Positions 11,356-52,948 of a DNA stretch of 64,000 nucleotides are shown here, piece after piece. The position numbers and the translations under genes were made by a program. The stretch lies in the NCBI RefSeq assembly GCF_022846255.1, contig NZ_AP025682.1, one strand, 5' to 3'. The DNA is from Escherichia coli (GTDB lineage: Bacteria > Pseudomonadota > Gammaproteobacteria > Enterobacterales > Enterobacteriaceae). Position 1 is the stretch's first letter; each line of letters begins with the position of its first letter. The notes under the pieces are model-generated. The model did no database searches and was not told the DNA's origin. It saw only the letters and a list, made by a program, of their open reading frames with translations.

Positions 11356-11528
11356 AAAGTTCTTTTGCGCTGCATTGCTGGCGTAAATGTCAGCAATGCA
11401 GCATTTCCTCACGATTCTTCTTTGACGATCGCACTTTTTGCTCGTTATGATGGCGTCGCTAGCCTCAGTAAATCCTTACTCCGGCGGTGCGCAACCCGTG
11501 CGCGTGAACCACTATCTGAATGCTCATC

Positions 11529-31854: not shown

Positions 31855-31939
31855 ATAAAAAAACCTGCTGGTGAGGCAGGTTCTTTTATTTACTATTTTC
31901 AGGCCTAACACCACAGCCTGTGCAACATCGTGTTCCAAC
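31855..31939 (-). ncRNA. Candidate antitoxin small RNA (OrzO-like), about 85 nt
   Basis: Minus-strand sigma70-like promoter (-35 TTGCAA at 31969-31974, 17-nt spacer, -10 TATAAT as complement of 31946-31951); intrinsic terminator (7-bp stem 31862-31868/31876-31882 followed by a U-run on the minus strand); 5' segment complementary to 32086-32105 of the toxin 5' UTR. Confidence 0.5.
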
Positions 31940-32753: not shown

Positions 32754-35700
32754 TTAATGGAAAATAACGTCGGGTGCGCTTAACGCTTCACTCAAATCAA
32801 ACACATCAAGTTCGGCAAAAGTGACGGATTTATTGTCACGGTAAACCCGAAGAGAACGGAAGCTCATTAGCGCTTTGCTATCAACATTGTAGTGGTTAAA
32901 GCCGGGTGAAAACTTAAGGACCAGCCGGTACGCACCTAAGTCATAGACAAATGCGTCCTCATAGCCTGACTCCCAGCCTTTGTATCGCATTCCCATAAGT
33001 TGACCAACGGTAGCGGATTTACCTTCCCAGCGAGTCAGGCTGTTACTGGCTGACTCGTCAGGTGTGAGCAGCACCGTGCGCCGCGCCAACTGGCGAAAAG
33101 GCGGCATAATTTCGTAATCGGCAAAAAGCTGTGCAAATTCACTGCGCATTTCTGCTGCCATTTCTAACGGGTGGGCAATGCCAATCAGAGCATCTGCAGG
33201 CAGGTCAATGGACTCATCTTGTGCATTGCAGAACTCCCCCTCTGCGGCCACACGAAAGGCGTTGAGTAAACGACGCGGTTCATTTGCCGGATAAACCCCC
33301 CATATTAATCGCTGGGTAACCAGGCGGGTAAAGGGATGATTAACAAACAGAGAATGAAAATCTGCCAGCGACCAGCGTCGGGTGGTGCGCAGGGCAGTTT
33401 CAAGACGCGGGAGCAGGTTTTTGCTCACCTGAGAGGCATCTTTTTTTAGCCCTTTTAGTCGGGCCAGTGCCTCGGGGGCTTTCAGTTGATCGTCATCGGC
33501 GCGCAACCGGGGAACGCTTTTCTGGCGAACGTTTTGTTGATCGTAGATAACCGGGTTGAGGTTTTCATCGAAGCGAACGGTAAATTGCCGTGGACCAAAA
33601 TCAAAAATCAACGCCTGCGGATCATCAAGACCCAGTGTTGGGACTAATCTGTCCGCTAACTCTTCCTGGCTTAGCCCGCGATTTTCTGCGACCACCTGAA
33701 GAAATTCCGCCGCGTTATCACGTAAGGAGCGGGATTTCGCCCGTTGGGATATATGGTGCAGCTGTATCAGCGCCATATCATTATTCATCAGGGTAAGGAT
33801 GTTCAGGCCACTGACAGCACGGGCAGATTTGCCTTCTTGTGGCCAGGCGAGGATCTGTGTCGTCAGATCCCGAGCCGTGCTTTCGTCACCAAAGAGACTT
33901 AACGCCAGAAATGCCCAGTTGTCTTTTGCGGGGGCTCCAGCTTGTTGCCATGCGGTGAAAAGATCCCAGGCAAAAGCTGCCAGCGTTTGCGGCTGGCAAA
34001 ACGTTTTCAGCTGTTCCAGTCCGCCATAAAAACGTCCGCCCTGGGTAAAGCGCAGCATTTCGCCGATAATTTCCAGAGCGTCATCGGTAACAGGCTGATT
34101 ATTCTTGATAAGGCGCGGCCTGGACCACATTGCCGGATGCCAGAAATCAGGAGCTTTTGGAATACGTGCCGGGTAAATTTCTATTGGACCCAGTTTAAGT
34201 AATTGCTCCAGGGCAGGCCATACATCTGTACGCTGCCAGCGGTTTGCCACGGTTTGCAGTAATTCGCCATGCCCTTGTTCATACAGTAAACGCAGGGCAA
34301 GTAATGCAGCTTCGCTATTATCGCTGGGTTTTGTAAAGACAAGAGGGATAAGTGCAGTAGCCGTATGTTCCGGCCATTGTAAAATCCACTGGCGAGCCAG
34401 ATCACGCTGCGCCGCGAAACGTCGCCAGACGCGGGCAACGGGCAGGGCCAGTTCTGTTGCGCCGAAATTTAAAATTAACGGAAATGTTTCTTTTGGATGA
34501 TGTGAAAAAGCCAATAACAGGCCAGGTAATGTATCCAACCCGAGGATACTGAGAAAATAGTCCTCACCCGCGAACAGATGCTTTTTCTCATTGATACGCA
34601 GCCAGAAAGTCAAAGCCATCTCACGCGGCAACTGTGCCAATAAATACAGGTTCCAGACACTCTTTTCCGGACGATAACGTGAGTAGCTATCATTTTCCCA
34701 GGTGTTAATTAACGCTTCAACGTCGCCGGAACGAAGCGCCTGTTCGGCTGATTTTGCTTCCGTGGAGTGCCAGCCATTGTTGATTTCCTCTACTCTGCGC
34801 GGGGAGTAATGCCACTGACCCACTAATGATTTGCGCGCCGCATCCAGTTTGCCGGGCAGTATATAATTCCGGAACAGCCATACATCATCCCCAAAACCTA
34901 GCTCCTGTAGTACAACTCGACCACTTTTTCGTTCCATGCGTTCCGTAAAAGATCCCGTGCTGAAATAACGGGCAGACTCTGTGGCGGCAAGTCTCTCTCG
35001 TTCGCCTGGTTGCCAGCGGGCTTTGGGCGCTAATTCAAGAGGCACTAAATCAAGGCGCAGCAATGCCGTTTTTTTCTTACCTCGCCACGGTGGAGAAACA
35101 AGTATTTCTGGCAGGTCGTTGCTATGAGTACTCTCGAAAGCAAGTTTTGGCGATGCCGATAAATAACCATTCACCACTGCCTGGGCTTGTGTACTTAAGC
35201 ACGGCATCACCTCTTCTGCCAGTTGTGGCTGCGATGCCATCAGCGTTTGTAACAGCGTATGCCAGTATTCATCACGTGCTTTTTGCTGTGCAGGCAGCTT
35301 TTTGTCTTCGATGATGGGATAACCAGGGCGCGCAGGGGGGGCTTTTAACGCCAGCAGTTCTGCCAGTGCGGCGAGCGTCGCATGGGGGAAGTTTTTACTG
35401 TATTTAGCCACACGTTGCAGGCTGGGTTTGTTTTTATCAGCCACCAGTAGCAAGGTGCGGATGACTTGCGGATGGTTAATTTGTACCAGCAGACTGCCGC
35501 AATCTTCTTTATGTGCATACATCGAGAGGCGCGGAACGGCTGCCAGTCCTTGTTCGCGCAAAAGGGCAGCGCAGGCCGCGTAGCCGAAGTGGTTTTCATG
35601 CGACATGTAGCTGGCTTCTCGATCGCTAAATATATCCTGGCTCCAGTAACGTGCGAGTTCTTTCACCGCCTTAGGGTCATCAGCAACAACTTTTAACCAC

Positions 35701-49704: not shown

Positions 49705-49922
49705 AAACTCTCCACTTTGGGGATCTGTAATATCAGTCGCATATCTTTCCTGCCATACAATATAACTGACAAGCGATATTTTGTTAGTGATCCCATGATT
49801 TCGTAAAAAGTGTAAATGAAAGGATGCCCTAAAAGCATCCTTAGCGAGCAGAGAGTCAGCGGAAATAGCTGATTTAAGAATCATCCTGGGCTGAAGATAA
49901 CATGCAAGCCTAAAGGATTGAG

Positions 49923-50747
49923 TTATCGCATTATGCCCATGAAGCCATGTACGCCCATATACACACCAACTAAGCCAATCAACAGACTGGAAAAATAGGG
50001 AGCGCGTTTAGCGAGAGTGTTAAATCCGCTCCAGCGTTTTGCGACCTGCTGAACGCTGATTGCTGCGCCAACGCCTACGGTGACAAGCGTTAACGCCAGG
50101 CCGAGGCTGAAACTGACGACCAGTGTTGCGCCCAGTGTCAGGGCTTTCAACTGAATGCAAATCAACAGCACGGTAATTGCTGCCGGGCAGGGGATAAGGC
50201 CACCGGTTAAGCCAAATAGCAAAATTTGCCAGTTGGTGACCTCTCTACCATCAAAGCGTCGTTTAATGTCATTGGCATGGGCTCGTGCATGGGCATCCTG
50301 ATACTCGCCATGTTCGTGATGGTGATGATGTCCATGGTCGTGGTGATCTTCGTGATCGTGGTGATGATGCTCATGATCATGCTCGTGCATATTCTCCAGC
50401 CAGTTGCGTTCGCCGCGCCAGGTACGCCAGAACATCCAGAACGCGGTGCTAATAATGATCACTGCGGAAATCAACTGGAGCCACGGTTCTGCTGATTGAG
50501 CAGTAAAGCGTTTGCTGATCACCATCCCGCCAAAGGCAATTAACCAGACCACTGCGGTATGCGAAATAGTTGCTGCCAGTCCGAGCATCACCGCCTGTTT
50601 AATGGTGCCTTTGATGGCGATGATAAACGCCGCCATCATCGCTTTTGAGTGCCCCGGTTCCAGGCCATGAAGCGCACCAAGTAAGATGGCGCTGGGGATG
50701 AAGAACCAGGCGTTTCCTTGCTGAAGAAGTGTTGTAAATTCGGTCAT
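49923..50747 (-). CDS. rcnA: Nickel/cobalt efflux protein RcnA (274 aa) with His-rich loop
   Basis: ORF track 49923..50747; His/Asp/Glu-rich loop HEHDHEHHHHDHEDHHDHGHHHHHEHGE. Confidence 0.92.
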   Translation of the reverse strand: MTEFTTLLQQGNAWFFIPSAILLGALHGLEPGHSKAMMAAFIIAIKGTIKQAVMLGLAATISHTAVVWLIAFGGMVISKRFTAQSAEPWLQLISAVIIISTAFWMFWRTWRGERNWLENMHEHDHEHHHHDHEDHHDHGHHHHHEHGEYQDAHARAHANDIKRRFDGREVTNWQILLFGLTGGLIPCPAAITVLLICIQLKALTLGATLVVSFSLGLALTLVTVGVGAAISVQQVAKRWSGFNTLAKRAPYFSSLLIGLVGVYMGVHGFMGIMR

Positions 50748-50867: not shown

Positions 50868-51140
50868 ATGTCTCATACAATCCGTGATAAACAGAAACTG
50901 AAAGCGCGTGCCAGTAAGATTCAGGGCCAGGTCGTGGCGCTCAAGAAAATGCTCGACGAGCCGCACGAATGCGCTGCAGTTTTACAACAGATTGCTGCTA
51001 TCCGTGGCGCGGTGAACGGTCTGATGCGGGAAGTGATTAAAGGTCATCTGACGGAACACATCGTTCACCAGGGGGATGAGCTAAAACGTGAAGAAGATCT
51101 GGATGTCGTTCTGAAGGTGCTGGATTCATATATCAAATAA
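50868..51140 (+). CDS. rcnR: Ni/Co-responsive repressor RcnR (CsoR/RcnR family, 90 aa)
   Basis: ORF track 50868..51140; [21 protein letters not shown]... Confidence 0.92.
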
Positions 51141-51235
51141 TTTATTAACGCGATTGTAAAACTGCCGTTTTTCCTCGTTTACAACGCGTGCGCTGGACAT
51201 TACCATCCTCCTTTGCGATTTATCATCGCAACCAA

Positions 51236-51362
51236 ACGACTCGGGGTGCCCTTCTGCGTGAAGGCTGAGAAATACCCGTATCACCTGATCTGGATAATGC
51301 CAGCGTAGGGAAGTCACGGACCACCAGGTCATTGCTTCTTCACGTTATGGCAGGAGCAAACT
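51236..51362 (+). ncRNA. TPP (THI-box) riboswitch in the thiM leader
   Basis: Conserved THI-element segments ggggtgccc...ctgagaaatacccgtatcacctgatctggataatgccagcgtaggga immediately upstream of the thiM start, with the SD caggagcaaa in the expression platform. Confidence 0.8.
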
Positions 51363-52151
51363 ATGCAAGTCGACCTGCTGAGTTCAGCGCAATCTGCGCA
51401 CGCGTTACACCTTTTTCACCAACATTCCCCTCTTGTGCACTGTATGACCAACGATGTGGTGCAAACCTTTACTGCCAATACCTTGCTGGCGCTCGGTGCA
51501 TCGCCAGCGATGGTTATCGAAACCGAAGAAGCCAGTCAGTTTGCGGCTATCGCCAGTGCGTTGCTGATTAACGTTGGCACACTGACGCAGCCACGAGCGC
51601 AAGCGATGAGTGCTGCCGTTGAGCAAGCAACACGATCACAAACGCCCTGGACGCTTGATCCGGTTGCGGTTGGTGCGCTCGATTATCGCCGCCGTTTTTG
51701 TGTGGAACTTCTGTCCCATAAGCCAACCGCCATACGTGGTAATGCTTCGGAAATCATGGCATTAGCTGGCGTTGCTAATGGTGGACGGGGAGTGGATACC
51801 ACTGATGCCGCAGCTAACGCGATACCCGCTGCACAAACACTGGCACGGGAAACTGGCGCAATCGTCGTGGTCACTGGCGAGGTGGATTATGTTACCGATG
51901 GACATCGTATCATTGGCATTCACGGTGGCGATCCGTTAATGACCAAAGTGGTAGGAACTGGCTGTGCACTATCGGCGGTTGTCGCTGCCTGTTGTGCGCT
52001 ACCAGGCGATACGCTGGAAAATATCGCATCTGCCTGTCACTGGATGAAACAAGCCGGAGAACGCGCAGTCGCCAGAAGCGAGGGGCCAGGTAGTTTTGTT
52101 CCACATTTCCTTGATGCGCTCTGGCAATTGGCGCAGGAGGTGCAGGCATGA
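51363..52151 (+). CDS. thiM: Hydroxyethylthiazole kinase
   Basis: ORF track 51363..52151; recognised as ThiM (262 aa). Confidence 0.92.
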
Positions 52152-52948
52152 AACGAATTAACGCTCTGACGATTGCCGGTACTGATCCGAGTGGTGGTGC
52201 GGGGATTCAGGCCGATCTTAAAACCTTCTCGGCACTTGGCGCTTATGGTTGCTCAGTGATTACTGCACTAGTGGCGCAAAATACCCGTGGCGTACAGTCG
52301 GTGTATCGCATTGAGCTTGATTTTGTCGCCGCCCAGCTCGATTCGGTGTTCAGCGATGTGCGAATCGACACCACTAAAATCGGTATGTTGGCGGAAACCG
52401 ATATTGTTGAAGCGGTGGCAGAACGGTTGCAACGTTATCAGATCCAAAACGTGGTACTCGACACCGTTATGCTGGCAAAAAGCGGCGACCCGCTGCTTTC
52501 ACCTTCGGCAGTTGCCACGCTACGCAGTCGATTATTGCCACAGGTTTCATTAATAACGCCAAACTTGCCCGAAGCAGCCGCCTTGCTCGACGCGCCACAC
52601 GCGCGCACCGAACAGGAAATGCTGGAACAAGGGCGATCGCTGTTGGCGATGGGCTGTGGCGCAGTGCTAATGAAAGGTGGTCATCTGGATGATGAGCAAA
52701 GCCCGGACTGGCTGTTTACCCGCGAGGGTGAACAACGGTTTACCGCACAGCGCATTATGACCAAAAACACTCACGGCACTGGTTGTACGCTCTCTGCGGC
52801 GTTGGCTGCACTGCGCCCGCGCCATACAAACTGGGCTGACACCGTACAGGAGGCAAAAAGCTGGCTTTCATCGGCGTTAGCCCAGGCCGACACGCTGGAA
52901 GTTGGTCACGGTATTGGTCCGGTTCACCACTTCCACGCCTGGTGGTGA
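52148..52948 (+). CDS. thiD: Hydroxymethylpyrimidine/phosphomethylpyrimidine kinase
   Basis: ORF track 52148..52948; ATGA overlap with thiM; recognised as ThiD (266 aa). Confidence 0.92.

Follow-up and report, generated by a model that had tools for sequence, protein, structure and literature searches.

An intact copy of the Escherichia coli thiM TPP riboswitch in the 5' untranslated region of the thiMD operon

TPP riboswitches of the Bacillus type, which work with intrinsic terminators, have the same aptamer fold and the same ligand as the riboswitch in the thiM leader of Escherichia coli. The two differ in the expression platform, which is a terminator/antiterminator in the Bacillus-type elements, while the thiM leader is without a terminator-like site. 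Within E. coli, riboswitches of the same aptamer class and ligand are found at thiC and at tbpA (thiBPQ), and published accounts describe them as also controlling translation initiation (PMC5234074, PMC11487190); they occupy loci other than thiM. For thiC, a regulatory pause where translation starts has been reported (PMC5234074), whereas at thiM Rho termination is presented as following indirectly from translation repression (PMC5499598).

The closest described system is the thiM riboswitch of E. coli K-12. This RNA binds TPP, and the crystal structure of its aptamer-TPP complex has been solved (PMC1920254). Chemical and enzymatic probing produced a TPP-free model in which nucleotides (nt) 71-86 pair with nt 108-125, the Shine-Dalgarno (SD) sequence at nt 126-129 is accessible, and nt 92-103 form a hairpin with an ACCA loop (PMC1920254). 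Analyses of ribosome-binding site (RBS) and AUG mutants and of lacZ reporter fusions showed that translation is repressed by TPP, with Rho-dependent termination as the result; both thiM and thiD mRNAs fall with TPP (PMC5499598).

Here we analyzed a stretch of E. coli DNA of 64,000 nucleotides (the window) that carries the thiM leader. A sequence-only reading had proposed a TPP riboswitch upstream of thiM and held that the lack of a significant Rfam TPP match would refute it. Scanning the whole 64-kb window against 4,227 Rfam families with Infernal returned a match to the TPP family (RF00059) at 51232-51328 on the plus strand, with a score of 71.2 bits (gathering score, 54.3) and an E value of 5.1e-12, well outside what chance would give. 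The match covers model positions 1 to 105 of 105 with no truncation, includes the aptamer and short flanks, corresponds to the 97 nt annotated as "TPP riboswitch" in RefSeq, and is the only TPP match in the window. The conserved THI-box segments that had been reported in the thiM leader were likewise recovered: the quoted 47-mer, ctgagaaatacccgtatcacctgatctggataatgccagcgtaggga, has a single occurrence in the window (51265-51311, plus strand). We conclude, with a probability of roughly 0.97, that the element is a native TPP riboswitch in the 5' untranslated region (UTR) of the E. coli thiMD operon, acting as a translational OFF switch. The present analysis establishes its family, its gene context, its identity to K-12 and two mutually exclusive pairings in silico; that it binds TPP and adopts the probed conformers, that translation is repressed and that Rho is required comes from published work on the K-12 element, whose sequence is identical.

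The aptamer proper, from the 5' strand to the 3' strand of P1, spans 51238-51315 on the plus strand. With helices taken from the Rfam structure line, all 23 of the 23 pairs in P1 to P5 are standard pairs. P1 joins 51238-51241 to 51312-51315; P2 joins 51242-51245 and 51247 to 51272 and 51275-51278; and P3, in the register GCC-C-UUC / GAA-GGC, joins 51248-51250 and 51252-51254 to 51260-51265. On the other arm, P4 pairs 51284-51287 with 51306-51309, and P5 pairs 51290-51293 with 51300-51303. The junctioned fold is thus present as P1, a P2-P3 arm that contains the pyrimidine sensor CUGAGA (51265-51270), and a P4-P5 arm that contains the pyrophosphate sensor ACCUGAUCUGGAUAAUGCCAGCG. Both conserved sequence blocks were found, at 51265-51270 and 51283-51305, while the optional P3a arm is missing from the window aptamer as scored by the Rfam model. 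The window element shows all the defining features of the TPP family that can be tested in silico except comparative helix support, for which only P3 is informative. On the 3' side of the aptamer, a hairpin at 51319-51330 is followed by the pyrimidine block UGCUUCUUC (51333-51341), the SD sequence AGGAG (51352-51356), which was read from the sequence and lies 6 nt upstream of the start codon, and the ATG at 51363.

The gene context is that of the K-12 locus. The thiM open reading frame (ORF), encoding hydroxyethylthiazole kinase, extends over 51363-52151 on the plus strand (Pfam HK, PF02110, 354.7 bits; thiM in RefSeq) and starts 48 nt after the 3' strand of P1 on the same strand. From end to end, it shares 98.9% identity with the ORF that RefSeq annotates as thiM in E. 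coli MCJCHV-1. Next in the regulated operon comes its second gene, thiD, which overlaps the thiM stop by 4 nt and encodes a hydroxymethylpyrimidine / phosphomethylpyrimidine kinase (52148-52948, plus strand; PF08543, 318 bits; RefSeq). Upstream, the metal-sensing repressor gene rcnR (50868-51140, plus strand; PF02583) is divergent to rcnA, whose product has a His-rich loop (49923-50747, minus strand), and the pair lies just upstream of the thiM promoter region.

Sequence identity ties the window copy to the characterized element directly. The segment 51232-51365 is identical to that of K-12 MG1655 and has the same flanking genes, rcnR upstream and thiM-thiD downstream; only two substitutions separate the window from MG1655 in 51100-51420, and neither falls in the aptamer or in the SD/anti-SD segments. 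At 51213, the inferred +1, the window has T and K-12 has C; at 51381, in thiM codon 7 and within the 3' strand of the long ligand-bound hairpin, the window has A and K-12 has G. A 261-base stretch of E. coli MCJCHV-1 is 100% identical to the window, and RefSeq annotates the same 97 bases of that genome, between rcnR and thiM, as "TPP riboswitch". The sequence is present in 5,424 of 5,426 complete E. coli genomes, and in 4,369 of the 5,424 the 134-base query (51232-51365) finds its best match at 99% identity or higher. The window copy is the E. coli thiM TPP riboswitch itself in another strain, and is already known. Its description in the sequence-only reading as expected and well characterized was accurate; MG1655 is the strain used in the published structural and genetic studies (PMC1920254, PMC5499598). 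For the window, the significance lies in correct annotation: this is an intact textbook copy, and thiMD is expected to be TPP repressed; nothing new for riboswitch biology follows from it.

We examined the expression platform by folding the leader with and without the aptamer pairs enforced, the enforced pairs standing in for bound ligand. Under this constraint, the SD sequence (51352-51356) is predicted to pair with CUUCU at 51335-51339, as part of a helix in which the anti-SD UGCUUCU (51333-51339) pairs with AGGAGCA (51352-51358), the P8 helix. When additional 3' sequence was included, CAGGUC at 51325-51330 paired with GACCUG at 51372-51377 within thiM, a modeled helix that we equate with the published P7, and 51318-51323 paired with approximately 51380-51385. 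In the constrained fold, the first ~8 thiM codons (51366-51385) therefore supply the 3' strands of a long ligand-bound hairpin, the published P6/P7. In the unconstrained minimum-free-energy (MFE) structure, by contrast, the 3' half of the aptamer (51298-51316), comprising the 3' strands of P5, P4 and P1, acts as an anti-anti-SD and pairs with 51333-51352, with the anti-SD occupied by the aptamer segment GGGAAG; GGAG is largely unpaired, and a ligand-free hairpin, GACC-ACCA-GGUC, forms at 51319-51330. After conversion of the numbering used in PMC1920254 (nt = window position minus 51227), this unconstrained pairing is exactly the probed TPP-free model, and the hairpin is the one with the ACCA loop at nt 92-103. 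The anti-SD is thus seen in two mutually exclusive pairings in silico, with the SD when the aptamer is closed and with the 3' strand of the aptamer when it is open, and both match the published models of the K-12 element (PMC1920254). The sites of the loss-of-control mutations G100C/G101C (M4 sites, PMC1920254) correspond to 51327 and 51328 in the window.

The same contrast was apparent in the pairing probabilities. For the leader up to ATG+8, the probability that GGAG is unpaired was 0.00 with the aptamer enforced, 0.59 without constraint, and 0.26 with the aptamer enforced and the linker shuffled; with 30 nt more of coding sequence, the corresponding values were 0.002, 0.55 and 0.24. The earlier proposal that the SD is sequestered in the expression platform thus holds for the TPP-bound conformer, in agreement with published chemical probing (PMC1920254). 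The AUG itself, although enclosed by the hairpin, is unpaired in the constrained fold (0.98), unlike the published description, in which the RBS and AUG are both sequestered (PMC5499598). The fold of the whole leader has an unremarkable z-score of -0.54, as would be expected for a bistable RNA. In the sequence-only reading, the element was given as 51236-51362, from 2 nt upstream of P1 (51238) to the last base ahead of the thiM ATG; this interval takes in the aptamer and the portion of the expression platform in the 5' UTR but stops short at the 3' end. Because the ligand-bound fold draws on 3' strands in the coding region, the platform probably reaches approximately 51385, inside thiM.

Together with the published work on K-12, these folds give the following account of the switch. 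When TPP is scarce, the aptamer's 3' half (51298-51316) would pair with the pyrimidine-rich anti-SD region (51333-51352), and the SD at 51352-51356 would be free, allowing translation of thiM. At high TPP, the aptamer (51238-51315, P1 to P5) would fold around TPP and release the anti-SD UGCUUCU (51333-51339), which could then pair with AGGAGCA (51352-51358) within a longer hairpin that uses thiM codons 2 to 8, and ribosome binding would be blocked. The untranslated message would in turn expose a C-rich tract (approximately 51400-51444), so that Rho would terminate transcription early in thiM and both thiM and thiD mRNAs would be lowered.

The DNA around the leader can be aligned with the published transcript. 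We place the transcription start (+1) at 51213 on the plus strand by coordinate transfer from Bastet 2017 (PMC5499598), since only then does G142C, the RBS mutant, fall on G51354 and U152A, the AUG mutant, on U51364; this start would give a 150-nt 5' UTR. A consensus scan found a candidate sigma-70 promoter on the plus strand (51178-51206), with TTTACA at 51178-51183, a 17-nt spacer and TACCAT at 51201-51206 (9 of 12 consensus positions). The scan yielded 1 site against 0.5 expected from shuffles, which is weak by itself, and the candidate fits the start implied by the numbering of PMC5499598, 7 nt after TACCAT. In the coding region, a C-rich, G-poor tract on the plus strand at 51400-51444, with no G and a GC skew of -1.0 over 51410-51434, matches the published rut site near +200 (PMC5499598). 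By the same coordinate transfer, the Rho termination sites at +231, +237 and +262 (PMC5499598) correspond to 51443, 51449 and 51474. As a separate observation, the 73 nt between the end of rcnR and the putative thiM +1 hold no terminator-like site, so that read-through from rcnR into the thiM leader is possible.

Other explanations of the region can be weighed against this evidence. The decrease in thiM and thiD mRNA with TPP (PMC5499598) could, taken alone, suggest transcriptional control, with intrinsic (Rho-independent) attenuation, the mechanism of many Bacillus TPP riboswitches, as the main action of the leader in place of RBS occlusion. A scan for stems followed by U-runs found no terminator-like site anywhere in 51000-51500, and an intrinsic-terminator mechanism was rejected on that ground; the leader 3' of the aptamer lacks a U-tract, and the effect on mRNA needs thiM codons 20 to 34 and Rho and follows translation repression (PMC5499598). 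We regard attenuation of this kind as very unlikely. It is more improbable still that the match is due to chance or to a degenerate, nonfunctional THI-box relic, with thiM regulated by other means. Broken copies do occur in the species, since in ~90 other E. coli genomes an insertion-split aptamer falls below the gathering threshold, but the window offers this notion no support: the match is full length with an E value of 5e-12, all 23 aptamer pairs are intact, identity to the functional K-12 element is 100%, and rcnR lies directly upstream without an insertion.

That the region is instead protein coding has the least probability of all, and we consider it next to negligible. Two ORFs that overlap the leader do appear in the mechanical ORF list, one of 68 amino acids on the minus strand (51332-51126) and one of 79 amino acids that starts at an out-of-frame TTG on the plus strand (51332-51571), but neither is annotated in the five RefSeq genomes inspected (MCJCHV-1, MG1655, strain ExPEC, NRZ105822 and strain 117), and their coding potential was rejected. 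The plus-strand ORF, moreover, overlaps thiM out of frame, and conservation across genera follows the RNA helices, with compensatory changes in P3 and variable loops, rather than codons. A TPP riboswitch that controls translation of thiM remains the reading that we prefer.

We also compared the thiM leaders of other Enterobacterales. A pattern scan of species-representative genomes, with a fetch pattern that spans CUGAGA through P5, returned 120 loci, and in 85 other species thiM lies 92 to 106 nt downstream of CUGAGA; these species span Escherichia, Citrobacter, Enterobacter, Kosakonia, Pantoea, Erwinia, Serratia, Pectobacterium, Edwardsiella, Hafnia and other genera. In the resulting MAFFT alignment of Enterobacterales thiM leaders (86 rows), three pairs of P3 are changed on both sides, each in 8 to 11 of the 86 species, and 99% of P3 cells are paired. 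P1, P2, P4 and P5 never vary, which is uninformative, and from CUGAGA through P5 the fetch pattern itself accounts for part of this constancy; also unchanged across the alignment are the P1 strands and GGGAAGUC, both of which lie outside the pattern. The linker is variable except for a conserved CUUCUU block and GGAG. At the level of single bases, G51354 and A51355 do not vary among the 86 leaders, conservation of G51353 and G51356 is 90% or higher, and C51335, U51337, U51339 and U51340 either do not vary or reach at least 90%.

Sequestration of the SD did not stand out in this comparison. With the aptamer enforced, partition-function folding of the leaders of the 86 species gave sequestration no better than that with shuffled linkers (Wilcoxon P = 0.23), and the result was still not significant when 30 nt more of coding sequence, which holds the 3' strands of P6/P7, was included (P = 0.22). 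In an equilibrium model, a clean switch was obtained in the Escherichia clade and in ~35 species, and not in the others. The duplex energies of anti-SD/SD and of anti-SD/aptamer 3' strand were indistinguishable from those of shuffles (window fractions, 0.12 and 0.27), a test that is uninformative because short pyrimidine-rich linkers pair with the purine-rich SD by chance. Counting pairs by column for P8 and the ligand-free switch helix was compromised by a slip of one column in the MAFFT alignment between the "GCTTC-TTC" and "GCCTTCTTG" clades, and covariation is not possible for either helix since both partners are nearly invariant. As these comparative tests gave no support, the SD sequestration step in the window rests on its own constrained fold and on the published probing; the nonsignificant cross-species result bears on the comparative claim only and not on the E. 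coli element.

The alignment also contains a covarying long-range helix between columns 95-101 and 128-134, corresponding in the window to 51321-51326 and 51348-51354, which joins bases just after P1 to bases 5' of the SD and the first two SD Gs. Examples among the 86 leaders are CCUGUCCGG...CCGGACAGG and CCUGACCG...CGGUUGGG. In this helix 79.5% of cells are paired, compared to 72.1% in shuffles; its covariation score is 0.288 versus 0.163, a value that 0 of 500 shuffles reach, and slid controls score lower. One pair occurs in four types (AU, 27; CG, 23; UG, 13; UA, 11). In E. coli the helix is weak, consisting of CC/GG plus CCA/UGG.

In ~90 other E. coli genomes, the aptamer is split by one of two different integrase-bearing insertions, and both insertion sites are unoccupied in the window. 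The first element was analyzed in E. coli NRZ105822 (NZ_OZ501607.1), where it occupies 15.1 kb between rcnR and thiM. It is flanked by a 14-bp direct repeat, AGAAATACCCGTAT, which is found at 34675-34688 and 49817-49830 of NZ_OZ501607.1 and corresponds to 51268-51281 of the window, within the aptamer (CUGAG|AAAU...). Its genes encode a tyrosine integrase, a primase, a single-stranded-DNA-binding protein (SSB), a major capsid protein, a prohead protease, a portal protein, a head-tail connector, an HNH protein, and the small and large terminase subunits, with no tail genes; by this gene content, the element looks like a capsid-forming phage satellite. The TPP remnant on the thiM side of the element scores only 35.1 bits. 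The junction of the first element was found in 76 of 5,426 complete E. coli genomes, including SMS-3-5.

The second element is a decayed remnant of ~5 kb in the same aptamer (NZ_CM172609.1), with a partial integrase gene, two IS3 copies and a DUF6453 gene, and its junction was found in 15 genomes. It is flanked by a 13-bp repeat, AATGCCAGCGTAG, which corresponds to 51296-51308 of the window, in the 3' strands of P5 and P4. Loss of the 3' strand of P1 leaves the TPP copy on the rcnR side at 50.0 bits, under the gathering score.

With either insertion in place, the aptamer is split and thiMD is cut off from both its promoter and TPP control. We think the chances somewhat favor the aptamer-encoding DNA being also an attachment site for mobile elements, one that is unoccupied in the window. 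If integration is truly site specific, the riboswitch aptamer would be a conserved landing site, like tRNA genes but without repair by the incoming element. Our searches found no literature linking thiM to prophage or PICI integration, an absence that is no proof of the link being unpublished. The insertions may be of interest for the choice of integration sites or for the natural loss of riboswitch control; they belong to other genomes and do not affect the window copy, which is intact.

A different rearrangement is present in some other genomes. In strain 117 (NZ_CP028668.1, 731-3000), an insert of ~2.2 kb lies between rcnR and the riboswitch, with its junction at window position 51229. Its contents are a gene for an outer membrane protein, a hypothetical gene and an HTH-like fragment. 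Only from 3 nt ahead of the Rfam match is the sequence again homologous to the window, and the promoter-like site and the putative +1 are replaced. Of 5,424 genomes, 697 cover less than 80% of 51140-51400.

The Rfam scan of the window also returned two full-length matches to other families. A cis-regulatory motif, the Peptidase-S11 RNA (RF03039), lies at 11444-11524 on the plus strand with 72.8 bits against a gathering score of 34.8, and OrzO-P (RF02083), the antitoxin small RNA of a type I toxin-antitoxin pair, lies at 31857-31932 on the minus strand with 99.9 bits against a gathering score of 60.
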